Positions 1-49,251 of a stretch of DNA of 51,064 nucleotides are shown here, in pieces (within the stretch, counting starts at the first letter, position 1; every line of letters begins with the position of its first letter). The stretch lies in the IMG/VR virus record IMGVR_UViG_2534681675_000014; one strand, 5' to 3'. A program made the position numbers and the translations under genes. This stretch comes from a virus (taxonomy: Duplodnaviria; Heunggongvirae; Uroviricota; Caudoviricetes). Below the pieces are notes generated by a model. That model was not told the origin of the DNA and made no database searches. It worked only from the letters and a program-made list of their open reading frames with translations.

Positions 1-1236
1 CTATGATAACCGCGCATTCAACATGGCTATCTGTTCGTCGTTCATGTCATCAATCCACATACCGTAAATTTCATACACCATCTGCGCAGTTTCATGCCCC
101 ATTTGGCTGGCTATAAATGCCGGGTTCGCTCCTGCCGTCAACAGCCAGCAGGCAAAAGTATGCCGCGTATGGTACGGATTACGGCGGCGAATACCAGCAC
201 GTTTTACTGCTGCATTCCACCTTGCCCCCAAACTGCTTACCGAGTAATAAGGTTTTTGTTTTCCGTTACACACCCTGGGCATGAAAACAAAATGCAGTTT
301 TTGCTTTTCGGTTCTGCCGTACTCCCGATGATAAAAGGTGATTTCGCTTTTGCGATGATGCCCGGTCAGTTTGTATTGCTCCTTCAGTGCTTCAAGAGCA
401 GGCTGCAGTAGTGTTACTGTCCGGATCCCGGCATTTGTTTTTGGGGGACCGAACATATCAAGTATCGTCAGGTTTCTTCTGACATTCACTATTCCCTTTT
501 CGAGATCCACATCCTCCCACGCCAGAGCTGCCAGTTCCCCGTGACGAAGTCCTGAGTAAACTGCAAATTTCCACATGTTCTGGCTCTGTCCTTTTTCACT
601 TTCCATTAATGCATTGAATTCTGTTTTAGATAACGGATCAGGCTTTATTCTGTTTCGCTGTAATTTTTTTACTCCTTCAAATGGTTTGGTTGATATAAAT
701 CCCGACTGATACGCAAAACGTAACAGCGAACAGAGCAGGGCGATATAGTTATCAACTGTGCGCACGGTTCTTCCTTTTTTGTTGGATCTTGGATTATCCA
801 GGTAAAGCGTTTCTCCATGCAGCAGTTCATTCCGGTAGTTTAAGATATCGCTATAACGAATATGTGATATCAGGGTACTTTCACAAATTATTATTCTGAG
901 TGTTTTTAATTGTGATTTCGTTTTCTTCATTGTGTTTGTTGTTAACTCTGTCTCTTTAATTTTCGTCCAGATATCACAAAGCTCTCCGAACGTTTTTATG
1001 ACTCTCGTTGTCACCATTTTTGCCCCAGTGCTGGACTGGGGAAAACGTCTTAAATACTCAAATTTACCGGAGTTTATTTCATGAACTATCAGCGCTCTTA
1101 AATTTCCGGCCTTTTTAATATTACTGTTTGTAATCTCCCAGCCTTTTAATGTTTCCCGACATCGTTTTCCTCGAAACATGAACCAGATGCGAATGTATCT
1201 ACCTCTAATCTCGACACCTGTTGGTAATTTAGACAT
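1..1236 (-). CDS. intR: Tyrosine recombinase, phage integrase (Rac IntR-like)
   Basis: 411-aa ORF ending at window edge; sequence recalled as Rac-type integrase; followed upstream by xis-like gene on same strand. Confidence 0.85.
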   Translation of the reverse strand: MSKLPTGVEIRGRYIRIWFMFRGKRCRETLKGWEITNSNIKKAGNLRALIVHEINSGKFEYLRRFPQSSTGAKMVTTRVIKTFGELCDIWTKIKETELTTNTMKKTKSQLKTLRIIICESTLISHIRYSDILNYRNELLHGETLYLDNPRSNKKGRTVRTVDNYIALLCSLLRFAYQSGFISTKPFEGVKKLQRNRIKPDPLSKTEFNALMESEKGQSQNMWKFAVYSGLRHGELAALAWEDVDLEKGIVNVRRNLTILDMFGPPKTNAGIRTVTLLQPALEALKEQYKLTGHHRKSEITFYHREYGRTEKQKLHFVFMPRVCNGKQKPYYSVSSLGARWNAAVKRAGIRRRNPYHTRHTFACWLLTAGANPAFIASQMGHETAQMVYEIYGMWIDDMNDEQIAMLNARLS

Positions 1237-7457: not shown

Positions 7458-7742
7458 CTTATCTCTCCCCTTAACGCCGGGTGGCGGAACTGAAACCTGC
7501 TGCACTGCAAAATCTGAACCCTGCCGTCATGTTCATACGCCTCGGGCTGGCTACTTAACCCCTGACCACTGCCTGGTAACTCGAAGTATTGCCCTGCATT
7601 CTGTGGGGTGGGGTGAGGGAATGAATGAAGTTTAGAAAAATGAACTTTTCAGGTCAATGTTTTTTTTATCAAAACATTTTAGGCAGGCAGCTGTTAAGCC
7701 ATCAGCACGATGGCATACAGTTAATCAAATAGATGAGGTTGG

Positions 7743-8381
7743 TTAAATATCTTGTTGAATTTTAAAGCATACGCCCAATATGCAAGATAGATCATCCAGC
7801 ATAATTGAAGGGTAGCGAGGATTCGTGGGGACTAAAAGAATATCCGGCCCTTCTATCTCCAGTTTACGAATGACAGGTGTTGTGGTCCCTTTGGGTAAGG
7901 CAAGGACAATATTTCCTGGTTGTACGGTTCGATCGGGATCAACAAAAACTGTTGAACCATTTGGGATGGAAACTCCCCCACCAGATGTTGACATACTGTC
8001 ACTCTCTAGAACAACTGCAAAGGTATTGGCCGGGATTTCTCCGACAAGCTGCACACAAGAGGTTATTGAGGAATTTTTCATATAATCACTCCAGCTTGCT
8101 GCCTGCTGAAGTGATAGTAGCGGAACCGTTTTTATCGGCGGTAAAGATAGATCAAGCGAATCACCTGTATTTAACTCTCCTCCATTAAGAAGCCAATTTT
8201 CGTTTACTTTCAATATCTTTGCCAGTGAACTTATGTAACGCGAGGACGGCGCTCCTCCACCGTTCATCCATTGACTTACGGAGCCTTTTGATGCGCCAGT
8301 GGCATTGACAAGGTCTTTGCCTTTCAGGTTTAGCGCATGCATACGTTGGGTTATGCGTTCAGATATTGTTTGCTTGCTCAT
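7743..8381 (-). CDS. CI-type prophage repressor (N-terminal HTH, C-terminal LexA/S24-like autopeptidase)
   Basis: 212 aa; N-terminus SERITQRMHALNLKGKDLVNATGASKGSVSQW is HTH-like; C-terminal half S24-peptidase-like; divergent from cro-like gene; ATG directly abuts operator repeats. Confidence 0.75.
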   Translation of the reverse strand: MSKQTISERITQRMHALNLKGKDLVNATGASKGSVSQWMNGGGAPSSRYISSLAKILKVNENWLLNGGELNTGDSLDLSLPPIKTVPLLSLQQAASWSDYMKNSSITSCVQLVGEIPANTFAVVLESDSMSTSGGGVSIPNGSTVFVDPDRTVQPGNIVLALPKGTTTPVIRKLEIEGPDILLVPTNPRYPSIMLDDLSCILGVCFKIQQDI

Positions 8382-8472
8382 GTTTTGATTTTAAAACACA
8401 GATGGTTTTGTTTCTTGACTTTCTTTGGTTTTGATTATTAAACTTTTGGCGTTCAGTTTTATGGAGCGACTC
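8382..8472. promoter_or_regulatory. Divergent immunity promoter/operator region (OR-like)
   Basis: 91-bp gap between divergent repressor and cro-like genes; three direct GTTTTGWTT repeats at 8382, 8405, 8428 (23-bp period); TTGACT -35-like hexamer at 8415..8420. Confidence 0.5.
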
Positions 8473-8715
8473 ATGAAAAAATCAGAAGTATTAGGCTATT
8501 TTGGCGGAGTTGTTAAAACAGCCGCAGCTCTAGGAACGTCAAAAACCACAGTCAGCATGTGGGGGGAAGAGGTTCCGTGGAAATGGGCGTTGCTAATTCA
8601 GGCAGTCACTGCCGGGGCGCTCAAATATGAGTTACACATACCGACGGTTGTCATTCCTGGTTCTGATCATAATCCGCCTTCTAACCAAGGGGGGATTCAT
8701 GAAAATCAAGCATGA
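8473..8715 (+). CDS. Cro-like HTH regulator (YdaS-like)
   Basis: 80 aa from ATG 8473 (GGAG 6 nt upstream); HTH-like VKTAAALGTSKTTVSMW; divergent from repressor. Confidence 0.65.
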   Translation: MKKSEVLGYFGGVVKTAAALGTSKTTVSMWGEEVPWKWALLIQAVTAGALKYELHIPTVVIPGSDHNPPSNQGGIHENQA

Positions 8716-9124
8716 ACACATCCGCATGGCGATGAATGCCTGGGCGCGTCCTGATGGCGAAAAAGTTCCAGCAGCTGGAATAACCCAGGCTTATTTTGAG
8801 TTGGGTATGACGTTTCCTGAACTGTATGACGACAGCCATCCGGAAGCCCTGGCTCGCAATACCCAGAAAATTTTCCGCTGGGTAGAGAAAGACACCCCTG
8901 ATGCAGTTGAAAAAATTCAGGCGTTGTTACCAGCGATCGAAAAGGCAATGCCACCTTTGCTGGTGGCCAGAATGCGCAGCCACAGTTCAGCTTATTTTCG
9001 GGAGCTGGTGGAGACGCGGGAGCGATTGGTGAGAGACGCTGATGATTTTGTCGCAGTGGCAATCGCCGGTTTCAATCAGATGAACCGTGGTGGCCCGGCA
9101 GGAAATGCTGTGGCAGTACATTGA
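8699..9124 (+). CDS. YdaT-like protein (141 aa)
   Basis: ATG 8699 with AAGGGGGG Shine-Dalgarno; starts MKIKHEHI as recalled for Rac YdaT; overlaps cro-like gene by 17 nt. Confidence 0.6.
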   Translation: MKIKHEHIRMAMNAWARPDGEKVPAAGITQAYFELGMTFPELYDDSHPEALARNTQKIFRWVEKDTPDAVEKIQALLPAIEKAMPPLLVARMRSHSSAYFRELVETRERLVRDADDFVAVAIAGFNQMNRGGPAGNAVAVH

Positions 9125-9195
9125 CTGACAATAGCCATATCGAATCGCTTCCGGCAACTCGTGAGTAAAAAGATTCGGTATCAGAAGAGGTGAGT

Positions 9196-10278
9196 ATGGC
9201 TAACGCCTGGCTCAGATTATGGCATGACATGCCAAATGACCCTAAGTGGCGAACAATTGCCAGGGTGTCAGGGCAGCCAATTGCAACAGTGATGGCAGTG
9301 TATATCCACCTCCTGGTGAGCGCGTCACGAAATGTCACGCGAGGTCACATTGATATCACGACAGAAGATTTGGCAAGTGCGCTCGACGTGACAGAAGAGG
9401 TAATTGATTCAATTTTGCAGACGATGCAGGGGCGGGTACTTGATGGTGATTTAATCACTGGATGGGAAAAACGCCAGGTGCTTAAAGAGGACAACGGCAA
9501 TATTTCGCAAACCGCAAAATCTCCTGCAGAGCGCAAGAGGGCGCAGCGAGAGAGGGAAAGAAAGCGGGAACAAAATGGCGATTGTCACGGCGCGTCACGA
9601 AATGTCACGCACATGTCACGACGAGTCACGACAGATAAAGATACAGATAAAGATACAGATAAAGATACAGATCAAGAAGATCAAAATACTATGGTCCATG
9701 GCGTAAAAAACGCCACGAACCAGGCAGGGGATGTTCAGACCGTCAATCCTGGTCAGCCAGCAGGCACGACACCGGAAGCCGATTCAGCGTATGCGCTGAA
9801 AGCCGATTCGGGCGCTGTGCAGCAGGTGATGACCGCAAGGCCGGAGCAATCACACCAACTGCAGCAGCCTGAAGCCGATTCCGCCATTCAGCGGGAAGCC
9901 GATCGGGTAGTCCCGGAAAACACCGGGCAGTCTGTGGGACGAGTGGATTATCCGGATGTGTTCGAACAGGTCTGGCGGGAGTACCCGTTGCGTGCCGGGG
10001 CAAACCCGAAGAAATCCGCTTTCAGTGCCTGGAAGGCCAGATTACGTGAGGGGGTGCCACCAGAGGCCATGCTGGATGGCGTTAGGCGTTACGCAAGATA
10101 CCTGGCGGCTACCGGGAAAACGGGAACGGAATTTGTTCAGCGAGCGACGACGTTTTTTGGACCGGACCGGAATTTTGAGAACCCCTGGTTGCTCCCGGTA
10201 AGCGGCACGAACAACCAGCGTTGTGTGAATCATATTTCTGAACCGGATACCGAAATTCCGCCTGGCTTCAGGGGGTAA
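9196..10278 (+). CDS. Putative replication initiator (O-like), iteron-containing
   Basis: 360 aa from ATG 9196; position after the immunity switch; internal GTCACG iterons and DKDT-repeat linker; acidic/basic linker then C-terminal domain. Confidence 0.55.
   Translation: MANAWLRLWHDMPNDPKWRTIARVSGQPIATVMAVYIHLLVSASRNVTRGHIDITTEDLASALDVTEEVIDSILQTMQGRVLDGDLITGWEKRQVLKEDNGNISQTAKSPAERKRAQRERERKREQNGDCHGASRNVTHMSRRVTTDKDTDKDTDKDTDQEDQNTMVHGVKNATNQAGDVQTVNPGQPAGTTPEADSAYALKADSGAVQQVMTARPEQSHQLQQPEADSAIQREADRVVPENTGQSVGRVDYPDVFEQVWREYPLRAGANPKKSAFSAWKARLREGVPPEAMLDGVRRYARYLAATGKTGTEFVQRATTFFGPDRNFENPWLLPVSGTNNQRCVNHISEPDTEIPPGFRG
9321..9364. repeat. Iteron-like cluster 1 (GTCACG-type hexamers at about 10-bp phasing)
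   Basis: Hexamers at 9324, 9334, 9344, 9355; 20-mer cgcgtcacgaaatgtcacgc (9321..9340) repeated exactly at 9591..9610. Confidence 0.5.
9583..9670. repeat. Iteron-like cluster 2 plus three 12-bp tandem repeats (candidate origin core)
   Basis: GTCACG at 9584, 9594, 9604, 9615, 9625, then ataaagatacag x3 (9635..9670); inside the replication gene. Confidence 0.5.
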
Positions 10279-10318
10279 GTGCTGATTTCAGGTCATGAGG
10301 TAATTTTCAGGAGGACTT

Positions 10319-10723
10319 GTGGCAAAAGTTTTTACACAAGAAGAGCGAGAAAAAATTAAAGGGCAGGTTGTTGAACTCGTACGCCAGAGTGGGCGCGAGA
10401 CGTTACGACAACTGGAAGCTAAAACCGGGGCAACAAGATATCTGATGAGCGTTCTGGCCAGAGAGCTGGTTGCCAGTGGCGATGTATACAACTCTGGCTA
10501 CGGGTTATTCCCGTCAGAACAGGCTCGTAAGGACTGGCAAAATGCCCGCAAAAAACTCTCGAGGGCAAAGGTGAAGAAACCATCTGTGGTTGATCCGGAC
10601 CTTATCTGGTCATTACCTGACGGAGAAATACGTCGCTACGACAGGCGTCAGAACATGATTTGCCGTGAGTGCCGGGAAAGCAAAGGTATGCAGCGTATAC
10701 TAACGTTCTATTGGGGAATATAG
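10319..10723 (+). CDS. Hypothetical protein (134 aa)
   Basis: GTG start 4 nt after CAGGAGG Shine-Dalgarno; follows replication gene on same strand. Confidence 0.45.
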   Translation: MAKVFTQEEREKIKGQVVELVRQSGRETLRQLEAKTGATRYLMSVLARELVASGDVYNSGYGLFPSEQARKDWQNARKKLSRAKVKKPSVVDPDLIWSLPDGEIRRYDRRQNMICRECRESKGMQRILTFYWGI

Positions 10724-10738
10724 CCACTAAATAAGGTA

Positions 10739-11050
10739 ATGAACCAAATGAACACGGAAAAAGCGAAAACGCAGCTCAGGATAATGCTTGCCGGTCCGGC
10801 TGCGAGTTATGCGACACATTCACCAGCCATAAAAAAGGTTCTTGATGAACTGGAAGCCAAAGACAAGCGCATTGCAGAACTGGAGGCAAGGGAAGTCCAG
10901 CTACCGGCTGGCTATGAACTTCGATATGGACACCCGATAAATGCTGATGAGCGCCATGTCATGATACCTAAGGAAAATGGCAGCTGGATTTATCTGGCTG
11001 ATTTAGAGCGCGCACTACGTGTTGCTGGCATTCGCATCAAAGGAGAGTGA
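10739..11050 (+). CDS. Hypothetical protein (103 aa)
   Basis: ATG start; tightly packed in the replication/nin block. Confidence 0.45.
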   Translation: MNQMNTEKAKTQLRIMLAGPAASYATHSPAIKKVLDELEAKDKRIAELEAREVQLPAGYELRYGHPINADERHVMIPKENGSWIYLADLERALRVAGIRIKGE

Positions 11051-11051
11051 C

Positions 11052-11408
11052 GTGGAAATAAAACCAGAAGATGAGTTAAGTAATATTGTTTTATTTCCGG
11101 TAAAAGAAGATGATCCACGTAATCAGGTTAATTTTCTTTATGAGCCATCGGAAAGACCATATTGCCATCACGCTTCTGTCCGGGTTGATGAAAAAGAGCG
11201 TCAGGTCCGCTGTAAAATCTGCGGTGCAGTTGTGGAGCCGTTTGACTGGATGCTCTCTGTGGCGAAAAGAGAAAACAGACTGGCAGATAATGTAAGGCTA
11301 TTGCGTCAGGAGGAACGGGAAAGGCGGAAAAATATAGAAAAGCTAATTCAGATTGAGCGTAACGCAAAAGCGCGGATACGCAGAGCGACAAAATCCAGAA
11401 CTGAATAA
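11052..11408 (+). CDS. Hypothetical Cys/His-containing protein (118 aa)
   Basis: GTG 11052 with GGAG 6 nt upstream, 1 nt after previous stop; CHH...CKIC motif suggests a zinc ribbon; ORF track gives a longer 11019 start. Confidence 0.45.
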   Translation: MEIKPEDELSNIVLFPVKEDDPRNQVNFLYEPSERPYCHHASVRVDEKERQVRCKICGAVVEPFDWMLSVAKRENRLADNVRLLRQEERERRKNIEKLIQIERNAKARIRRATKSRTE

Positions 11409-11505
11409 TTAAATTTAGCACTGTTAAAAATTTAATCCTTAACCGGAGGGATTTCTGCACCCTCAGAACATCAGGAGGCCGCCTGAAAGGGCGGTGGAGA
11501 TAATA

Positions 11506-12027
11506 ATGGGAATAACTAAAGAACGATTGTTGGAAATAGCAAACCTTAGTGATTGGGCATTAAGTGATGAGAGAATTATTTCTCCTCATGCTTATGAGTC
11601 AGTTACAAGTATAGAAATAACAACAATGGCTAGAATGCTGCTTGGTTATTTCAAAATAGAAAATAAAAAACAGATGGATAGTAATGTTGATATATGTGAG
11701 ATTTTAGACGATTGGGGGGCTTGGGTTGTGGCTGGTAATAGTTCTATTGATTGGCAGGAAATAGCTGATAAATATAAAAATGTTGTTCCTCATGGTAAAA
11801 AATCACGTCGTCAGTGCAGCAATGATGAAGGGCGAGTTATTGACATTAGTATCCTTAGGTTAGAAAGATATAAGCAACAAGAATATGAGTTAATTGTTGC
11901 TCATTTTGTGATTGGTTTATCTCTTCGTGCTATTGCAAAGCAACAAGGATGTTCAGATGGAACAATTCGTAAAAGATTGCAAAAAGCCTTAGGTTTTTTG
12001 ACTGGATATATAGCAATTACCAGTTAA
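11506..12027 (+). CDS. Q-family antiterminator-like protein (QuuD/933W-Q-like), paralog 1
   Basis: 173 aa from ATG 11506 (GGTGGAG SD); motifs DDWGAWVV, KSRRQCSNDEG, LIVAHFVIGLSLRAIAKQQGCSDGTIRKRLQKA align with recalled DLP12 QuuD sequence. Confidence 0.6.
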   Translation: MGITKERLLEIANLSDWALSDERIISPHAYESVTSIEITTMARMLLGYFKIENKKQMDSNVDICEILDDWGAWVVAGNSSIDWQEIADKYKNVVPHGKKSRRQCSNDEGRVIDISILRLERYKQQEYELIVAHFVIGLSLRAIAKQQGCSDGTIRKRLQKALGFLTGYIAITS

Positions 12028-12665
12028 GAGTCAGCGGGTTTTTTACCAGTGTAATGGTATAAGGATACTCCCATGTGTCTTACATGATATGGAAGCGCTG
12101 TTGCTGGATGCTTTGTGATACTCTTAAAGCGGAGGGGAGAGCCTTCCGCTTCAATTTCTGCGTCCGAAACGGTCGTAGAGAAAAATTCTTTCCATTCATT
12201 GAATTTTACTGCTGATTTGTCAGACTTTATATAAATTAGAATTCCTCCATGATCGTCACGTGACGTACCCGTGCCGTAACGTTCGGTTAGCTGAATCCAG
12301 CCATTATGAATAGATTTGGGGCCTCTCCATAATTTTGCTTCACCGATCCATTCGAATTTTCCGAATTGATGTTTAACTAATAAATCAACGTGACCGCCAT
12401 GTTGAGTATCATGTTCAACATCATAAAACCTACCTTTCAGGAAATTTTTGATCGACGCTGTTAGCTCGTCCTCTCCCCACTTAGCATCTTGATAGAAGTG
12501 TTTGTCATTTTCTAAATTCTGAATAGCGTCGTCTAAATCTTCATAGAGTTGCTTTACAAAAATATTTTTGTCTGCAGCTAATTTTCTTTGAACCATTCCC
12601 CTAAATTCAGGATCCATTCTAATTAATGATTGAAGGTCTGCAGTACAGATGTTTACATCACTCAT
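12024..12665 (-). CDS. Hypothetical protein with PD-(D/E)xK-like nuclease motif (213 aa), operon gene 3
   Basis: ATG 12665 with GGAGAG SD; motif GHVDLLV...FEWIGEAK; stop overlaps the Q-paralog-1 stop; AT-rich. Confidence 0.55.
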   Translation of the reverse strand: MSDVNICTADLQSLIRMDPEFRGMVQRKLAADKNIFVKQLYEDLDDAIQNLENDKHFYQDAKWGEDELTASIKNFLKGRFYDVEHDTQHGGHVDLLVKHQFGKFEWIGEAKLWRGPKSIHNGWIQLTERYGTGTSRDDHGGILIYIKSDKSAVKFNEWKEFFSTTVSDAEIEAEGSPLRFKSITKHPATALPYHVRHMGVSLYHYTGKKPADS

Positions 12666-13086
12666 GCAGACTCTCCAAAAGACTCGAAGGAGTAAAGTAT
12701 GGATAAAGATACTGGCTAAAATTATCAACCAATTCGCCAGTTTCTGGATGGTAAAAACTTCCTGTGTCTAAAGCATAGGAAATAAGATCATCTTCAACTG
12801 GTATTGGTTCTTCCGTTAAATTATCAATGTATTGAAAATGCATATCCAATAGATGTGCTTTATAGCTAGATAAATAATCAGTTGCTTTTATTAGCAGGAT
12901 ATAGTCATCTTTCGTATCAGTTAGATAGGTCAAACCATTGATAAGGGTTTTGTATGTAAAGTGATTGATATTTTTAGCATCTTTACTAACCAGAAAAAGA
13001 AAAAGATCACGACACACACTGCGAACAGGATCATTAAAATCCTGCTCTATTTGCGTGATAATGTCGTGATATATACTCTTTTTCAT
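12658..13086 (-). CDS. Hypothetical acidic protein (142 aa), operon gene 2
   Basis: ATG overlaps upstream gene stop (ATGA at 13083..13086); stop 2 nt before gene 3 start; AT-rich. Confidence 0.5.
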   Translation of the reverse strand: MKKSIYHDIITQIEQDFNDPVRSVCRDLFLFLVSKDAKNINHFTYKTLINGLTYLTDTKDDYILLIKATDYLSSYKAHLLDMHFQYIDNLTEEPIPVEDDLISYALDTGSFYHPETGELVDNFSQYLYPYFTPSSLLESLHE

Positions 13087-14174
13087 TTATGGCCTGATGA
13101 TCTCGCTCTTCTTTTCTCTTCACAGGACTTAACAGAATCCAATATTTTTTCAACAATAAATATAATCGAATCAATGTTGTTACAGTTCTTCGCAATTGCC
13201 TCATGCAACCTAATTCTAGGATTATCAAGCATTGTCCTTTTCCCTGGTAATATTAACTCTACTGATAAAATATGTGAAGAACTTTGTGGTAAATCCCAAA
13301 TTTTTCCCAACTTAAACTTTGTCAATATTGGGCTTGCGGACTCTCCACTATGATGGTAAACATCTTGACGCAAACACTTTTGACTTGGTTTGAGTTTTAA
13401 AGAACTTGTATTGCCATCTGAGGTGATAAAAGATACATGAGAAATTCTGCCATCTACTTTCTCGTAAAGATCTTGTATTGAACCAAATAATTCAAGAGGA
13501 TTGTTTAAAATAACGCCAGCTTCTTTTTTTATAAAATTAGCCACAAGGTATTGTTGAGGCTGTGATTCACTTCTTGGAAGGATAGATAAATCAATCGTAA
13601 GAATTAATATTTTTTCTGCAGGCATTAGCATGATGGTATTAAAGCATTGCGTGACTTGGCGTGTTTTGCATTTTATTTCTCCACCATTAGCACGTAATTC
13701 CATACCCGCATCGCTAAGATGTGTTGGGTCAAGCTCTATCACTTCAGTGTAATACGCTTTGGATAAAAAAACAGCAGTGTCAATTTGTTTATCACGAATG
13801 ATATCTTGACGTAGTTCAGCAAAATGCAGCTCAGTATCAGCAACTAACAGCTCCTCTCTGGATAAAGGAGTTGGGTATTTTTCTGAGAAGGGGCTATTGT
13901 CCTTTTTCTGATTTGTGAAAATTGTTTGTAATTTTGCTACGTCTTCATCGGTGATTCTATAAATAGAAAGTAATCGATTCCCGCTAAAAATTAAACCTTT
14001 CCAGAAATCGTCGATTCTGTCTTTTAGGTCGGGATTATGCTGAACTACACTATTTACACGTTCAATAAAAAGGGGTAATCCTTGGGCCGTTACACCCAGT
14101 GATGAACCAAGAAGCTTACGGGTGTTGCGCCAGCCAAAGCGTGAATTGATGTTTTTTACTGTTTGCTCAAGCAT
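13083..14174 (-). CDS. Hypothetical protein (363 aa), operon gene 1
   Basis: ATG 14174 preceded by AAGGAAG SD (ORF track alternative GTG at 14180); AT-rich; no family recognised. Confidence 0.55.
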   Translation of the reverse strand: MLEQTVKNINSRFGWRNTRKLLGSSLGVTAQGLPLFIERVNSVVQHNPDLKDRIDDFWKGLIFSGNRLLSIYRITDEDVAKLQTIFTNQKKDNSPFSEKYPTPLSREELLVADTELHFAELRQDIIRDKQIDTAVFLSKAYYTEVIELDPTHLSDAGMELRANGGEIKCKTRQVTQCFNTIMLMPAEKILILTIDLSILPRSESQPQQYLVANFIKKEAGVILNNPLELFGSIQDLYEKVDGRISHVSFITSDGNTSSLKLKPSQKCLRQDVYHHSGESASPILTKFKLGKIWDLPQSSSHILSVELILPGKRTMLDNPRIRLHEAIAKNCNNIDSIIFIVEKILDSVKSCEEKRRARSSGHK

Positions 14175-14462
14175 TAACACTTCCTTAATTTTCCCTTAAC
14201 AATTTAGGGTGCTAAACTTTTTTGCGCAGTTTACACAAAAAAATAGTGCGTACGCAAAAACTATCTAACATGATGAGCTTTAACCGGGAAACTTGTATAT
14301 GTTGTGAGCATAAAGTTGGCTGAGAAATCTAAAACGGGTAGAATGACTGCGGGTGCTTGAGGCTATCTGCCTCGGGCATGAACACCAAAGGCAGATAGAG
14401 AAAAGCCCCAGTTAACATTACGCGTCCTGCAAGACGCTTAACATTAATCTGAGGCCAATTTC

Positions 14463-14675
14463 ATGCTTTGCACAAGTAGGTTAGCCTCTTACGTGCCGAA
14501 AGGCAAGGAGAAGCAGGCTATGAAGCAGCAAAAGGCGATGTTAATCGCCATGATCGTCATCTGTTTAACCGTCATAGTGACGGCACTGGTAACGAGGAAA
14601 GACCTCTGCGAGGTGCGAATCCGAACCGGCCAGACGGAGGTCGCTGTCTTCGTAGACTACGAATCTAGAGAGTAA
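14463..14675 (+). CDS. Mok-like in-frame leader reading frame of the hok locus (70 aa)
   Basis: In-frame N-terminal extension of the Hok-like toxin, as in mok/hok loci. Confidence 0.5.
   Translation: MLCTSRLASYVPKGKEKQAMKQQKAMLIAMIVICLTVIVTALVTRKDLCEVRIRTGQTEVAVFVDYESRE
14520..14675 (+). CDS. hok: Hok/Gef-family type I toxin (51 aa)
   Basis: MKQQKAMLIAMIVICLTVIVTALVTRKDLCEVRIRTGQTEVAVF recalled as Hok family; AAGGAG SD; stable hairpin downstream (14681..14707). Confidence 0.8.
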   Translation: MKQQKAMLIAMIVICLTVIVTALVTRKDLCEVRIRTGQTEVAVFVDYESRE

Positions 14676-15744: not shown

Positions 15745-16034
15745 TGGTGGATTTACGTAAAGCGGCGCGGGGGCAGATGTGCACCGTCAGAATTCCTGGC
15801 TACTGCAATCACGATCCGGAAACGTCTGTGCTGGCGCATTACCGACTGGCGGGAACGTGCGGAATAACGACAAAACCACACGATATGCAGGCGGCGATTG
15901 CCTGTAGCTCATGCCACGATCTAATCGACGGGCGGGTAAAAACCAGCGATTACACCAAAGAAGAATTACGCCTGATGCATGCAGAAGGTGTTTTTCGCAC
16001 ACAAGAAATCTGGAGAAAGGAGGGATATTTGTGA
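15744..16034 (+). CDS. YbcO-like Cys/His-rich nin-region protein (putative nuclease)
   Basis: 96 aa; Cys/His pattern CTVRIPGYCNH...CSSCHD; length and position match DLP12 YbcO as recalled. Confidence 0.6.
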   Translation: MVDLRKAARGQMCTVRIPGYCNHDPETSVLAHYRLAGTCGITTKPHDMQAAIACSSCHDLIDGRVKTSDYTKEELRLMHAEGVFRTQEIWRKEGYL

Positions 16035-16573
16035 TTTACCCAACGAATACAGGAAAAAGCGGAGAACACCTTCGTCTCGCCACGCTGGAAAGTGTCTGGA
16101 TTCAGGGCAAACTGCGTATGTGGGGGCGCTGGTCGTATATTGGCGGTGGCAGGTCAGGAAATATGTTCAATCAGTTGTTGGCATCCCAAAAATTGACGAA
16201 AACAGCCATCAATGAAGCCCTGCGCAGAATGAAAAAAGCGGGAATAGAGAAAGCTGAGCTGGAAGCGTTTTTGAGAGAGATGATCAACGGCAAGCAAAAG
16301 AGCTGGCTGGCGCATTGTACTGATGCAGAGGCGTTATGTATTGATCGAGTCATAAGTGAGGTGCTGGCAGAGCATCCAGGATTGATTTGCATTCTCCGGC
16401 AACGCTATGAAGGGCGGGGGATGACTAAGCGTAAAATGGCTGAATTGCTACATGATGCACACCCAGAGTGGTGTTTTAGCACATGCGAAAAACGGATTGC
16501 TAATTGGTTAGCTGTTGCTGAGTATGTCCTATATATTCCCATGCGTGAATCATTTGCTGAGAAAATGGCTTGA
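16031..16573 (+). CDS. Q-family late-gene antiterminator, paralog 2 (likely the functional late activator)
   Basis: GTG 16031 overlapping upstream stop (GTGA), AGGAGGG SD; WGRW motif and Q-like C-terminus; followed by a strong terminator about 85 bp downstream. Confidence 0.55.
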   Translation: MIYPTNTGKSGEHLRLATLESVWIQGKLRMWGRWSYIGGGRSGNMFNQLLASQKLTKTAINEALRRMKKAGIEKAELEAFLREMINGKQKSWLAHCTDAEALCIDRVISEVLAEHPGLICILRQRYEGRGMTKRKMAELLHDAHPEWCFSTCEKRIANWLAVAEYVLYIPMRESFAEKMA

Positions 16574-16656
16574 TTTCTTACGTATAAACTGCTTCAATTT
16601 CGCTATGCTTCGCAAAGCTGTATCGCGAGGCGAACAATCCCACGGATACAAAAAAA

Positions 16657-16677
16657 CCACCTAAAGGTGGTTTTTTT
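16657..16677 (+). terminator. Rho-independent terminator (tR-prime-like) downstream of Q paralog 2
   Basis: ccacc-taaa-ggtgg stem-loop followed by T7. Confidence 0.6.
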
Positions 16678-16952
16678 GTATCTGTAAGAAATGAGATATT
16701 AGTGTTGATATATTGTTGTTGTTTTGATGCATATTTCTATGCCTAAATAATGTGATGTAGATCACTTATATTATTAATGCTGTATTTTAATCTATTAAGG
16801 ATCTTGAGGTGTTCCCCAGGGCGGGGGTGGCAAGGTATAACTGTTTAGCGGGAGGGAAGCCACAGTGTATTAGTCAGGAGCTGATATACTTCGGGAGGCA
16901 CCCGACGCCTCAGATCATAATAATAATGACCTCTTTAGCTAACCATCTTTTT

Positions 16953-16976
16953 ACCGCCTTGACGGGCGGTTTTTTG
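16953..16976 (+). terminator. Rho-independent terminator
   Basis: accgcc-ttgacg-ggcggt hairpin followed by TTTTT. Confidence 0.5.
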
Positions 16977-17098
16977 TTTATATAGAAAGTATTTGGCAGG
17001 GATTTTAGGCTAAAAATCACCACGTAGTCTTAATTCAGGACTGAGGAGACGTTGATGTTGGTGAGATGATGCAGCACGGCTTCTGGCATAATTTCAGG

Positions 17099-17126
17099 CA
17101 AAAAAAACGGCCCGTGAAAGAGCCGT
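17099..17126 (-). terminator. Minus-strand terminator-like hairpin 1
   Basis: acggc/gccgt stem; A-run on plus strand equals T-run after the hairpin on minus strand. Confidence 0.4.
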
Positions 17127-17256
17127 AAAATCTAATGCATTTCAAAATTCGCCTCCAGAAAAACTCTTATATCTTTAGGTGTCATGATTTGTTTTTCCTT
17201 GACCTTAGTCAATATTACTATGTCATTATTAATGGTTGATTGTTTTTCATCCAGAT

Positions 17257-17278
17257 AAAAAAGCCCTCTTGCGAGGGC
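17257..17278 (-). terminator. Minus-strand terminator-like hairpin 2
   Basis: gccctc-ttgc-gagggc with A6 on plus strand (T6 on minus). Confidence 0.45.
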
Positions 17279-17405
17279 ACTAGTATGAAAATATGTGAAG
17301 CAATATTTATTAGCGTTTATGTAGTGGAGTTTTGGATTTTGTGATTTTTTTATAAGTTTTTTTGTGATGCAGATCTTTTTTTGACATTGTGTCGGTGATA
17401 GTCCG

Positions 17406-17432
17406 AAAAAAAGCGACCCGTTAAAGAGTCGC
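17406..17432 (-). terminator. Minus-strand terminator-like hairpin 3
   Basis: gcgac-ccgttaaaga-gtcgc with A7 on plus strand; loop resembles hairpin 1. Confidence 0.4.
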
Positions 17433-17545
17433 TTGTGAATAAAGGAAGTATATAAGTAACCGCGTACGTTATTAATTCTATTGCTCTATGCCTGTGACGG
17501 ATATTGATTTTGGTCAATTCATCTGTAATGAGTGGTTATTTACGA

Positions 17546-17572
17546 TAAAAAATAGCTCCCCGGAAGAGGAGC
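17546..17572 (-). terminator. Minus-strand terminator-like hairpin 4
   Basis: gctcc/ggagc stem with A-run on plus strand. Confidence 0.35.
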
Positions 17573-17822
17573 CCGTGAAAATTCATGGTGAGAAGAACAA
17601 GGATTTACAAAAGATTCCGACAGACAAAGAATCGTAGGTATTTTATGAGGCGATATTGGTTTTGTGGTGATTTATATCAATATCTTGATGGTTTCTTGAA
17701 TGCTTGATGGCTAATTATAATTATGCATATTAAATGATTATTATTGTTTTCATATAGAAATAAGTAGCATCCTTGATATAGTAACAGCACAACTCGAATT
17801 TTCTTTCACTGGGAGACTATTT

Positions 17823-18080
17823 ATGCACTCACACCATCATCAAATATCTATGAGCCAACTTACCATGAGTTCACCCATTAAAGGTTTTTCACTGTATGTA
17901 GAAAGCGAAGACGTGGCTGTCGCGATAGCTGAACTTGAAAAGGCCTTATCACAGCTCAGGAACGGAGATAAGGCATTCAAAGAAAGTGGTACGCTGGTTG
18001 GTAACGTCAGAGCAAGTTATTGCTATCCTTACCGCCCCCATTGTGTCGCGAAAGGTCTTTATTGGGATGAAGGGGATTAA
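17823..18080 (+). CDS. Hypothetical protein (85 aa)
   Basis: ATG with GGGAGA SD; convergent with the 170-aa gene and overlapping its stop. Confidence 0.4.
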   Translation: MHSHHHQISMSQLTMSSPIKGFSLYVESEDVAVAIAELEKALSQLRNGDKAFKESGTLVGNVRASYCYPYRPHCVAKGLYWDEGD

Positions 18081-18589
18081 GCAAGGACTTGTTCACCGAT
18101 AGTTACTGGTAGCGGACAAATGTATTCCCAGACTGGATCAGGGTTAAAGGTTTTACCTGCCCAGTAAAGTTCCATTCTGTAGGTGAATTCCAGTACTGAT
18201 GTATCATTTCTTAATAATGACATATCTCCGCGATGATAACTATCTGTTTGTATTATGAAGATTTTATCAGATGGTTTCCCGTCTGTAAGTCGAAAATGTT
18301 TAGCCTCCTCCAGGTTACCCCATGCGAAGAGTGACGTATAGCGAGAAGGTTTTTGCGGGTAAACTCCTCTTCGGTAAAACTCTAACCCCCAGTCGATGAA
18401 TTCGTTTTTATTATAAATTTTTGCCGCATTGTTAATAAGGTATCCCTCGCCATGTGGTGCAAGCCCGCACGGAAAAAGTTTGTCTACCAGAGATGACATT
18501 TCGACAGGACTTATATCGGAGAATCGCTTTGGTGTAACAATATCGCCAGTTGAGTATATTCCTCGGCGATCAACCAAAAATAGTTCCAT
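18077..18589 (-). CDS. Hypothetical protein (170 aa), cargo gene in the Q-to-lysis region
   Basis: ATG with GGAGAAA SD; minus strand, opposite to late transcription; AT-rich. Confidence 0.5.
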   Translation of the reverse strand: MELFLVDRRGIYSTGDIVTPKRFSDISPVEMSSLVDKLFPCGLAPHGEGYLINNAAKIYNKNEFIDWGLEFYRRGVYPQKPSRYTSLFAWGNLEEAKHFRLTDGKPSDKIFIIQTDSYHRGDMSLLRNDTSVLEFTYRMELYWAGKTFNPDPVWEYICPLPVTIGEQVLA

Positions 18590-18782
18590 TCATTTTCTCC
18601 ATTGATAGTTGTTACTTTTGGCGATGTAACGATATCAAGTGCGAGGTTATGCCGCCAGATTCTTAATCTGGTACTTCATCAGGCCCTTGCATGTACTAGG
18701 GCTTTTTCATTGTCAGGCTACGGATAACATCTCTGACTTCTTGTTAGTAAATCTGAGAGCCTGGACCCTACTGGATTTGCCC

Positions 18783-19688
18783 CTATATTTCCAGACATCT
18801 GTTATCACTTAACCCATTACAAGCCCGCTGCCGCAGATATTCCCGTGGCGAGCGATAACCCAGCGCACTATGCGGATGCCATTCGTTATAATGCTCGAAC
18901 GCCTCTGCAAGGTTCTTTGCTGCCGTTAACCCGTCTGGTTTGGGCATGATACTGATGTAGTCACGCTTTATCGTTTTCACGAAGCTCTCTGCTATTCCGT
19001 TACTCTCCGGACTCCGCACCGCCGTGTTCTTCGGTTCAAGTCCCAACATCCGGGCGAACTGGCGTGTTTCATTAGCCCGGTAGCATGAACCATTATCCGT
19101 CAGCCACTCCACTGGAGACGACGGAAGATCGTTGCCGAAGCGGCGTTCCACCGCTCCCAGCATGACGTCCTGTACTGTTTCACTGTTGAAGCCGCCAGTA
19201 GTCACCGCCCAGTGCAGTGCCTCACGATCACAGCAGTCCAGCGCGAACGTGACACGCAGTCTCTCTCCGTTATCACAGCAGAACTCGAACCCGTCAGAGC
19301 ACCATCGCTGATTGCTTTCTTTCACGGCCACTCTGCCTGTATGTGCCCGTTTCGATGGCGGTACAGCAGGTTTTCGCTCAAGCAACAGCGCATTCTGGCG
19401 CATGATCCGGTAAACACGTTTGGCATTGATCGCAGGCATACCATCAAGTTCTGCCTGTCTGCGAAGCAGCGCCCATACCCGACGATAACCATACGTGGGC
19501 AGCTCTCCGATAACATGGTGTATACGGAGAAGCACATCCGTATCATCAGTGTGACGACTGCGGCGGCCATCCATCCAGTCATCGGTTCGTCTGAGAATGA
19601 CGTGCAACTGCGCACGCGACACCCGGAGACAACGGCTGACTAAGCTTACTCCCCATCCCCGGGCAATAAGGGCGCGTGCGCTATCCAC
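18783..19688 (-). CDS. insD: IS2 transposase OrfB (InsD)
   Basis: 301 aa, recalled as IS2 InsD. Confidence 0.9.
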
Positions 19689-20011
19689 TTTTTTGCCCGT
19701 CCATATTCAACGGCTTCTTTGAGGAGTTCATTTTCCATCGTTTTCTTGCCGAGCAGGCGCTGGAGTTCTTTAATCTGCTTCATGGCGGCAGCAAGTTCAG
19801 AGGCAGGAACAACCTGTTCTCCGGCGGCGACAGCAGTAAGACTTCCTTCCTGGTATTGCTTACGCCAGAGAAATAACTGGCTGGCTGCTACACCATGTTG
19901 CCGGGCAACGAGGGAGACCGTCATCCCCGGTTCAAAGCTCTGCTGAACAATTGCGATCTTTTCCTGTGTGGTACGCCGTCTGCGTTTCTCCGGCCCTAAG
20001 ACATCAATCAT
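19646..20011 (-). CDS. insC: IS2 OrfA (InsC)
   Basis: 121 aa from [18 protein letters not shown]...; overlaps insD as expected for the InsCD frameshift fusion. Confidence 0.85.
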
Positions 20012-20141
20012 CTGTTCTCCAATGACTAGTCTAAAAACTAGTATTAAGACTATCACTTATTTAAGTGATACTGGTTGTCTGGAGATTCAGGGGGCCAGTC
20101 TACCTACGTTTAGCACCATCCGAATTCTCGGAGGTGAGGCT

Positions 20142-20357
20142 ATGAAATCCATGGACAAGTTAACAACGGGCATTGCCTACGGCACCTCCGCAGGCAGTGC
20201 TGGATACTGGTTTTTACAGTGGCTGGATCAGGTCAGTCCGTCACAGTGGGCTGCAATTGGTGTGCTGGGAAGTCTGGTTCTGGGCTTTTTGACTTATCTG
20301 ACAAATCTGTACTTCAAAATCAGAGAAGACAGAAGAAAGGCTGCGAGAGGAGAGTAA
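20142..20357 (+). CDS. Class II holin (phage 21 S21-type pinholin)
   Basis: 71 aa [30 protein letters not shown]...; dual-start Met1/Met4; GGAGGTGAGG SD. Confidence 0.85.
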
Positions 20358-46170: not shown

Positions 46171-46180
46171 TGGGGTGAAT

Positions 46181-49100
46181 ATGGCAGTAAAGATTTCAGG
46201 TGTACTGAAAGACGGCACAGGAAAACCGGTACAGAACTGCACAATCCAGCTGAAAGCAAAACGTAACAGCACCACGGTGGTGGTGAACACGCTGGCCTCA
46301 GAAAATCCGGATGAAGCCGGGCGTTACAGCATGGACGTTGAGTACGGTCAGTACAGCGTTATTCTGTTGGTGGAAGGATTCCCGCCGTCACATGCCGGGA
46401 CCATCACCGTGTATGAAGATTCCCAACCCGGTACGCTGAATGATTTTCTCGGTGCCATGACGGAGGATGATGCCCGTCCTGAGGCACTGCGCCGTTTTGA
46501 ACTGATGGTGGAAGAGGTGCGCGTAACGCGTCTGCGGTGGCACAGAACACGGCAGCCGCGAAGAAGTCAGCCGGCGATGCCAGCACATCAGCCCGTGAGG
46601 CGGCAACCCATGCGACTGATGCTGCAGGCTCAGCACGCGCAGCCAGCACGTCAGCCGGACAGGCCGCGTCGTCGGCTCAGTCAGCGTCTTCCAGCGCAGG
46701 AACGGCATCAACAAAGGCCACTGAAGCGGAAAAAAGTGCTGCCGCTGCAGAGTCCTCAAAAAGCGCGGCGGCCACCAGTGCCGCTGCGGCGAAAACGTCA
46801 GAAACGAATGCGGCAGCGTCACAACAATCAGCAGCCACTTCTGCATCCACCGCGACCACGAAAGCGTCAGAAGCTGCCACCTCAGCCCGGGATGCGTCGG
46901 CTTCAAAAGAGGCGGCAAAATCATCAGAAACGAGCGCAGCCTCGAGCGCCAGCAGCGCAGCTTCCTCGGCAACGGCGACAGCAAATTCTGCGAAGGCGGC
47001 AAAAACGTCCGAGACGAACGCTAAGTCTTCTGAAACGGCAGCGGGACAGAGTGCCTCAGCTGCGGCAGGCTCAAAAACAGCGGCTGCGTCGTCTGCCAGT
47101 GCAGCGTCAACAAGTGCCGGGCAGGCCTCAGCCAGTGCTAGCGCCGCCGGTAAATCGGCAGAAAGCGCCGCATCGTCCGCTTCAACAGCCACAACGAAGG
47201 CTGGCGAAGCCACTGAACAGGCCAGTGCAGCAGCGAGGTCTGCTTCCGCAGCGAAGACATCCGAGACGAACGCGAAAGCGTCGGAAACCAGCGCAGAATC
47301 CTCAAAAACGGCTGCCGCATCGTCCGCCAGTTCGGCGGCGTCATCGGCATCATCGGCGTCTGCTTCAAAAGATGAGGCGACCAGACAAGCGTCCGCAGCG
47401 AAGGGCAGCGCCACGACAGCATCCACGAAGGCGACAGAGGCAGCTGGCAGTGCGACGGCGGCAGCACAGAGCAAAAGTACGGCGGAATCTGCAGCAACGC
47501 GCGCTGAGACAGCGGCAAAACGGGCAGAGGATATTGCATCCGCCGTGGCGCTTGAGGATGCGAGCACGACGAAAAAGGGGATAGTACAGCTCAGTAGTGC
47601 GACTAACAGCACTTCCGAGTCACTGGCGGCAACACCAAAAGCCGTTAAGGCCGCGTATGACCTGGCTAACGGGAAATACACCGCACAGGATGCAACGACA
47701 GCACAGAAAGGGATAATCCAGCTAAGCAGCGCGACCAACAGCACGTCTGAAACGCTTGCCGCGACACCAAAGGCAGTAAAAACAGCCTATGACAATGCTG
47801 AGAAACGTCTGCAGAAAGATCAGAACGGTGCGGATATCCCTGGCAAAGACACCTTTACGAAAAATATTGGTGCCTGCCGTGCCTTTGGTGGGTCAGTAAG
47901 CACAATAACAGGAAACTGGACGACTGCACAGTTTATCGAGTGGCTGGATTCTCAGGGAGCATTTAACCATCCCTACTGGATGTGCAAGGGTTCCTGGTCT
48001 TATGGCAATAATAAAATCATTACTGATACTGACTGCGGTAATATTCATCTCGCCGGAGCTGTCATTGAAGTAATGGGGATAAAGTCAGCGATGACGATCC
48101 GCATTACCACACCGACCACCTCCACTGGTGGTGGAACAACTAACGCCCAGTTTACCTATATTAATCACGGAACAGATTATTCACCTGGCTGGCGAAGGGA
48201 CTATAACTCCAGAAATAAGCCAACGGCATCAGAGATCGGGGCGTTACCGTCAGGTGGAACAGCAGTATCATCAGTTAATCTGTCTTCAAAAGGTCGGGTA
48301 ACCGCGCTGACAGACAATACACAGGGGGCAACAGGTCTTGAGTTATACGAGGTGTATAACAACGGATATCCAACAGCGTATGGAAATATCATTCACCTGA
48401 AAGGGATGACAGCCGTTGGCGAAGGTGAGTTACTCATCGGCTGGAGTGGTACAAGCGGTGCTCATGCTCCGGCATTTATTCGTTCACGACGGGATACGAC
48501 CGACGCAAACTGGTCGCCGTGGGCGCAGCTTTACACCTCGGCTCATCCTCCTGCAGAGTTTTATCCAGTCGGTGCACCAATCCCGTGGCCATCAGATACC
48601 GTTCCGTCTGGCTATGCCCTGATGCAGGGGCAGACTTTTGACAAATCTGCATACCCGAAACTTGCAGCGGCTTATCCGTCAGGCGTGATCCCTGATATGC
48701 GTGGCTGGACGATTAAGGGCAAACCTGCCAGTGGTCGGGCCGTATTGTCTCAGGAACAGGACGGCATTAAATCGCATACCCACAGCGCCAGCGCATCCAG
48801 TACGGATTTGGGGACGAAAACCACATCGTCGTTTGATTACGGCACTAAATCCACGAATAACACTGGTGCGCATACCCATAGTTTAAGTGGTAGCACGAAT
48901 GCAGCTGGTAATCACAGCCATAGAGATGGCCGTCGATTTAACCCCAGTGTTTTTAAAGATACTTATCAATATGGTTATACAAGCTCAGGTCAAAATACCT
49001 GGGGTGTACAAGGCTCAGTAGGTATGTCTACGGGGTGGTTAGCTAATACCAGTACAGATGGTAATCATAGCCACTCACTGTCCGGCACAGCAGCATCTGC

Positions 49101-49251
49101 AGGTGCACACGCGCATACTGTCGGTATTGGTGCTCATACGCACTCCGTTGCGATTGGTTCACATGGACACACCATCACCGTTAACGCTGCTGGTAACGCG
49201 GAAAACACCGTCAAAAACATCGCATTTAACTATATTGTGAGGCTTGCATAA
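46181..49251 (+). pseudogene. stfR: Side tail fibre gene (StfR-like) interrupted by a 1-nt frameshift near codon 113
   Basis: N-terminal frame reads ...[10 protein letters not shown] then switches to -1 frame [22 protein letters not shown]... which continues to 49251; could be a sequencing error. Confidence 0.65.

Follow-up and report, generated by a model that had tools for sequence, protein, structure and literature searches.

An intact IS2 element immediately upstream of the lysis cassette in a Rac-type lambdoid prophage

IS2 is among the best-studied bacterial insertion sequences, and IS elements in resident lambdoid prophages are commonplace; in DLP12 of Escherichia coli K-12, an IS5 lies in nmpC between quuD and essD. 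The principle that lambda Q allows transcription to read through polar sequence was established decades ago. Disruption of lambdoid prophages by IS elements is well documented, as with the IS in the terminase gene of Sp4 of O157 Sakai (PMC2669165). Q proteins make RNA polymerase resistant to pausing and termination (PMC12360218). The account given there, citing Forbes and Herskowitz (1982) and Yang and Roberts (1989), documents the suppression of polarity by Q-lambda; for Q82, it describes suppressed pausing at a Rho-dependent terminator.

Promoter elements are known in both ends of IS2. The left inverted repeat (IRL) contains PIRL, a weak promoter of the extended -10 type, which is directed into the element and subject to repression by OrfA (PMC3219604; PMC3299598); the outward -35 is located in the right inverted repeat (IRR) (PMC3219604; PMC3299598; PMC9330008). 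The minicircle junction promoter pairs the IRR -35 with the -10 TAGACT, which lies at the tip of IRL; the spacer of 17 bp between them is mandatory and consists of 16 IRR bases plus 1 (PMC3219604; PMC3299598). The same -35 builds the IS2 fusion promoters that activate ampC, acrEF and neoR (PMC9330008).

The DNA analysed here (the window; 51,064 nt, IMG/VR record IMGVR_UViG_2534681675_000014) contains one IS2 with the following features.

18772..20102, transposase genes on the minus strand: complete IS2, 1331 bp, recognized by 100% identity and coverage against annotated IS2 copies and by its anatomy
18772..18812, minus strand: IRR, the 41-bp right inverted repeat; the minus strand ends ...CAAATCCA-3' and carries the outward -35 (PMC3219604; PMC3299598)
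20061..20102, minus strand: IRL, the 42-bp left inverted repeat, starting TAGACTGGCCCC...; PIRL reads inward, away from the holin (PMC3299598)
20011..19646, minus strand: orfA (insC), 121 aa, HTH_Tnp_1
19688..18783, minus strand: orfB (insD), 301 aa, rve (DDE) integrase core
19694..19688, minus strand: A6G slippery heptamer for the -1 frameshift to OrfAB, a motif described in PMC3219604
18767..18771, no strand: left copy of the target-site duplication CCTAC, which is single at the empty site of relatives
20103..20107, no strand: right copy of the target-site duplication CCTAC

Position 18772 is the first base of TGGATTTGCCCC and position 20102 is the last base of GGGGCCAGTCTA. Across its whole length, the element was 100% identical to copies that are listed in complete E. 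coli genomes as 'IS3-like element IS2 family transposase'; IS2 was found in 4854 of 5426 such genomes, at a median of four places per genome. Its terminal repeats are imperfect (IRR CA-3', IRL TA-3', with one extra IRL base on aligning the ends). Each IS2 end occurs once in the window and no further IS2 end is present. A -1 shift at A6G is predicted to yield a 409-aa OrfAB. The features by which IS2 membership can be tested on sequence (near-identity, the repeats, two overlapping ORFs with A6G and a 5-bp duplication) were all found, and the copy appears to carry all of the sequence determinants for transposition. The sole difference from the IRL oligonucleotide printed in PMC3219604 is a G instead of an A at IRL position 32, which is natural allelic variation; the G allele is also present in other genomic copies with 100% identity. 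The initial annotation had described an intact 1331-bp IS2 at 18772..20102 and a perfect CCTAC repeat on both sides (18767-18771 and 20103-20107) marking a fairly recent transposition, and it had proposed a comparison with related prophages lacking the element. The 100% identity, the intact orfA, orfB and A6G and the 41/42-bp repeats confirm the first of these points; the duplication and the recent transposition were borne out by the empty site.

For the empty-site search, 700 nt from each flank were joined with one CCTAC and searched against the complete E. coli genomes. The joined flanks matched six complete genomes ungapped over 1400 of 1400 nt with 99.4-99.8% identity; these six are uninterrupted and contain a single CCTAC. 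Residue-level alignment with strain T-HYM1 reads ...GGACCCTACGTTTAGC... at this point, with one CCTAC. The left flank itself is present in just seven of the 5426 genomes, and the six near-identical occurrences are the six uninterrupted genomes. None of the 5426 shares the insertion. The exact 38-nt left junction gave no match in the GTDB species representatives, a set that is uninformative here because it holds one genome per species. A match of the 5-bp flanks alone would be expected by chance in 1 of 1024 cases; it is the empty site that serves as the decisive control. Taken together, the unshared insertion, the perfectly duplicated target and an IS copy with 100% identity indicate a transposition that is recent and private to the source strain.

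The lambdoid prophage that carries the insertion is of the Rac type and full length. The window begins within the prophage, at the end of intR, and is collinear from intR through the tail genes with NZ_CP141767 and, at about 98-99% identity, with the T-HYM1 prophage adjoining ttcA (intR at 4..1236 of the window). All 44 ORFs compared with the relative are full length; identity to it is 100% for the holin, YdfR, lysozyme and Rz1. The Rac-type early-left set intR/xisR/ralR/recET/kilR/sieB, and trkG after the lysis genes, show 96-100% protein identity, with YdaE at 73%. The lysis cassette (holin, endolysin, Rz/Rz1) is followed on one strand by terminase, head and tail genes, the order of a lambdoid late operon.

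Several other features of the prophage were observed. Segment 7615-14338 is mosaic with respect to the closest Rac-type relative. The repressor gene (7743..8381, minus strand) encodes, in place of RacR, a CI/LexA-like protein with a Peptidase_S24 domain, suggestive of a switch that is cleavable in the SOS response. A hok/sok type I toxin-antitoxin is found at 14351..14525 and 14520..14672 (both plus strand); the Rfam sok match scores 111 bits, above gathering, and Hok is 98% identical to that of the relative. The side tail fibre is split near 46518 into ORFs 46175..47584 and 46537..49251, with one G missing relative to strain C11, which is otherwise identical over 3.2 kb and in which the tail fibre is annotated as intact (1023 aa); the split may be a true frameshift or may stem from a sequencing error. 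In other respects the prophage looks complete, and it is not to be presumed dead on account of IS2.

The region between the late antiterminator gene and the lysis cassette contains the following.

16031..16573, plus strand: Q-like late antiterminator gene, DUF1133, assigned from profiles and from 'antitermination protein Q' in induced phages
16574..16685, plus strand: presumed late promoter/Q-loading region, placed from co-conservation and the terminator
16642-16685, both strands: strong bidirectional intrinsic terminator (dG -29 kcal/mol, z -9.5)
16953..16978, plus strand: second intrinsic terminator between Q and the holin (z -2.3)
20114..20136, plus strand: predicted hairpin pairing the Shine-Dalgarno GGAGGTG (dG -16 kcal/mol for 20103-20160, with a modest z of -1.95)
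20142..20357, plus strand: class II (phage 21 S-type) holin, 71 aa, dual-start MKSM (PF04971, E 2e-35), 100% identical to the empty-site relative

Homology is the basis for calling the DUF1133 protein Q-like: it matches PF06576, phrog_753 ('anti-termination protein Q-like', E 3e-78) and, weakly, Phage_antitermQ (PF06530, 26.5 bits against a cut-off of 26). The 62 nt past its stop codon are co-conserved with Q in induced phages, homology ending at about 16635, and phage vB_EcoS-666R9 has an intrinsic terminator of different sequence at the equivalent place. This layout supports, and fits, a Q gene followed by its cognate late promoter (presumed), loading site and first terminator; the putative late region yielded neither a promoter nor a Q-binding element. 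The initial annotation had placed IS2 between the presumed late promoter/Q site and the holin, 39 bp upstream of the holin start and with InsC/InsD antisense to late transcription. All three statements hold: the Q-like gene, the co-conserved 62 nt and the terminator precede the element, exactly 39 bp (20103-20141) separate its end from the holin ATG at 20142, and the IS2 genes are on the minus strand and the late genes on the plus strand.

The spacer downstream of Q holds further signals. A promoter-like site at 16724-16751 (plus strand, TTGATG-16-AATAAT), with an intrinsic terminator about 200 nt further on, complicates the picture of the late promoter. A full-length sub-threshold STnc100 match spans 16775-16979 (Rfam, 26 bits where gathering requires 47, E 0.017), and the interval 16724..16979 may encode a small RNA or serve as an alternative late leader. 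This match and several others at 16594-16715 all fall far under their Rfam gathering scores and are signs of structured RNA only. Four terminator-like hairpins are spaced by about 150 nt on the minus strand (17107..17573), in the AT-rich spacer between Q and the 170-aa cargo gene described below; neither repeats nor convincing ORFs were found in this stretch, which could comprise small antisense transcription units. A search of the spacer 16680-17830 for repeated units was negative. Two candidates closer to the insertion were discarded. A hairpin and T-run at 18681-18710, considered as a terminator, folded no better than shuffled sequences (z 0.17) and was not counted; for an anticodon-like stem-loop at 18640-18680, considered as a tRNA remnant, ARAGORN reported no tRNA in the window and Rfam nothing at that place at E <= 1.

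A second Q-family gene (11494..12027, plus strand; PF06530, E 1e-31) with a sigma-70 region-4-like C-terminus lies far upstream of the late region and also complicates the picture. It is followed at 12024..14180 (minus strand) by three ORFs without a family match and then by hok/sok. The module with the second Q gene also occurs in the E2348/69 prophage; in T-HYM1 the slot is occupied by a DUF4435 and AAA ATPase pair, and it may be a variable cargo or defence hotspot.

The lysis cassette encodes the S21-type holin, YdfR, lysozyme and Rz/Rz1. The predicted Shine-Dalgarno hairpin lies wholly 3' of the insertion, 11 nt from the IS end, and is intact. The holin frame is open upstream into the IRL end, giving a 129-aa ORF (19968..20357, plus strand) with a GTG start at 19968; no Shine-Dalgarno was seen at its upstream starts, and its 58 stop-free codons would arise by chance in about 6% of cases. 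Homology of the lysis module to hundreds of E. coli prophages begins 0-24 bp from the insertion point (20107..20131; query 700-724), which places IS2 almost exactly on a mosaic module boundary.

The distance from the Q gene to the holin is about 2.2 kb in the empty-site ancestor and about 3.5 kb in the window with IS2. Between 18700 and 19999, each 100-nt window shows negative GC skew on the plus strand (C > G), a pattern that the flanking phage DNA does not share. A scan revealed no intrinsic-terminator-like site on the plus strand inside IS2, and the 1.3 kb antisense IS2 RNA contains no convincing translated ORF. Since the plus strand of IS2 is untranslated, C-rich and free of an intrinsic terminator, any polarity would be of the Rho type.

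We propose that an intact canonical IS2 transposed by copy-out/paste-in into the untranslated leader just upstream of the lysis cassette, duplicating CCTAC. The insertion would add about 1.3 kb of untranslated RNA, with C in excess over G and antisense to insCD, to the late transcript; the ribosome-binding hairpin, dual start and coding sequence of the holin would be left untouched. In an ordinary elongation complex, the antisense IS2 RNA would favour Rho-dependent polarity. At least two intrinsic terminators and a convergent gene stand in the way of the holin, so that it would be expressed only by Q-modified polymerase. If the late transcript is made by this terminator-resistant enzyme, the insertion would be tolerated or partly polar. 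Antitermination is seldom 100% efficient, and a partial drop across the downstream late genes is therefore possible. We infer that toleration or partial polarity is most likely and that strong polarity is doubtful. The probability of this reading, in which IS2 recently transposed to a site upstream of the lysis cassette and is most likely tolerated, or polar only in part, without trapping the prophage, is put at about 0.7. In a phage of about 50 kb that packages by the head-full mechanism, an additional 1.3 kb could also matter. Literature on IS2 orientation and polarity in gal was searched and nothing usable was found.

The minus-strand side of the insertion contains two further features.

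18080..18589, minus strand: 170-aa cargo gene of the DUF2441 family, 182 bp from the IRR end of IS2
18765..18793, minus strand: candidate hybrid promoter read from the sequence, with the IRR -35 TGGAAA (18793-18788), a 17-nt spacer and the -10 TAGGGT (18770-18765) in the flank

The 170-aa protein belongs to phrog_5663 (function unknown) and its homologues carry a precomputed DUF2441 assignment; at the thresholds applied, searches of Pfam, NCBIfam, PADLOC and PDB sequences gave no match. R9, S86 and E155 are invariant among 13 homologues, and by fold comparison the protein is ADP-ribosyltransferase-like, a resemblance at the fold level only. The hexamers of the candidate promoter were placed from the junction-promoter geometry in PMC3219604 together with the sequence. 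TAGGGT agrees with the -10 consensus at three of six positions, and T-A-N-N-N-T would occur at such a position by chance about once in 64.

Four other readings of the insertion were weighed. IS2 might be strongly polar on the whole late operon, covering lysis and morphogenesis, so that the prophage could be derepressed without lysis or particles, a domestication step. The plus-strand IS2 RNA is a typical Rho substrate, being untranslated and C-rich/G-poor throughout, and the insertion precedes every late gene; IS insertion is a known route to defective lambdoid prophages (PMC2669165), and a possible second lesion, the 1-nt deletion frameshifting the side tail fibre gene, is consistent with early decay. 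Against this, the late genes already need read-through of at least two intrinsic terminators and hence Q-modified polymerase, Q is a documented polarity suppressor in the account of PMC12360218, and the downstream lysis and morphogenesis ORFs are intact and nearly identical to those of relatives, so that relaxed selection is not yet seen. We regard such a block as rather unlikely. Nor would it entail the outcome raised in the initial annotation, a prophage trapped as non-inducible: repressor loss, excision and replication come before late transcription. That the IS2 copy was placed here by misassembly is worth considering for an element that is multicopy (median four places per genome), since repeats often cause misassembly and a repeat-collapsed copy may be misplaced. 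The base-exact boundaries and the perfect duplication of a target that is single-copy in six relatives are, however, the signature of transposition; a misjoin would not double five bases of a single-copy target, and an artefact is so unlikely that we give it almost no weight.

The two readings that invoke promoters at the IS2 ends differ in direction. An outward IS2 promoter giving low constitutive holin expression had been suggested, and it was not borne out. The end on the holin side is IRL, whose promoter is directed inward and repressed by OrfA, and the outward -35 is in IRR (PMC3219604; PMC3299598), which at 18772 faces left, away from the holin. By eye, the best plus-strand pair near IRL is TTAAGA-17-GATACT (8/12), and at the far junction a promoter-like hybrid site (18762-18789, plus strand) is directed at the holin from 1.35 kb off. 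The consensus scan found no holin-facing site at its threshold near the IRL end (20000-20141), and the region contains about as many promoter-like sites as chance predicts (8 found, 7.8 expected); holin expression from such a promoter is very improbable. In the other direction, the insertion might activate the DUF2441 gene (18589..18080) through the IRR hybrid promoter or through insCD read-through, which is compatible with the other explanations. The geometry copies that of the IS2 minicircle junction promoter (PMC3219604; PMC3299598), fusion promoters of this type are documented at ampC, acrEF and neoR (PMC9330008), and the scan showed no minus-strand terminator-like site between IS2 and the gene. 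As the -10 is poor (3/6), is matched by chance once in 64 and belongs to a site at 18765..18793 that the consensus scan did not call, we consider this activation unlikely. Less probable again is a combined outcome in which the hybrid promoter would turn on the ART-fold cargo gene while Q-dependent lysis is attenuated, so that an active Rac-type phage would become an element that is retained and expresses its cargo. A tolerated or only partly polar insertion is the reading that we prefer.

With Rac of E. coli K-12 and with full-length Rac-type phages (the T-HYM1 prophage; the induced vB_EcoS-666R9 and relatives), the prophage shares the intR-xisR-ralR-recT-recE-kilR-sieB series, the lysis cassette-trkG-ynaK order after it and stf/tfa/pin invertase at the end of the series. 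It differs from them in a replaced immunity/replication segment (7615-14338), in a CI-like S24 repressor instead of RacR and in an extra Q-family gene, and it is full length whereas K-12 Rac is deleted. The element agrees with reference IS2 (IS3 family, IS2 group, E. coli) in length, repeats, orfA/orfB with A6G, HTH and rve domains and 5-bp duplication (PMC3219604; PMC3299598).

Like the classical polar IS2 insertions, this copy lies within a transcription unit in antisense orientation, where its untranslated C-rich RNA is expected to recruit Rho. Classical IS2 polarity is suppressed by lambda N and Q (Forbes and Herskowitz, 1982, as cited in PMC12360218), and the unit in the window likewise carries a gene for a Q-like antiterminator. 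The Q of the window is a DUF1133-type homologue, not Q-lambda, Q21 or Q82; the locus could be a natural substrate for gauging how well a DUF1133-type Q carries RNA polymerase through 1.3 kb of antisense IS2. The insertion is of an already known kind, routine and strain-specific, and it has little weight beyond strain annotation. In the E2348/69 prophage (L003 17868..19241), we observed an ISEc13 (IS4-like) transposase that has the Q gene and its tRNAs on one side and the holin on the other, an independent insertion in the same interval. Like this resident lambdoid prophage and K-12 DLP12, the window has a mobile element in the cargo/leader interval from the late antiterminator gene to the holin. 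The IS family and the site differ from those of ISEc13 and IS5: IS2 in the window occupies a non-coding site at the mosaic boundary of the lysis module, and 39 bp separate it from the holin start.
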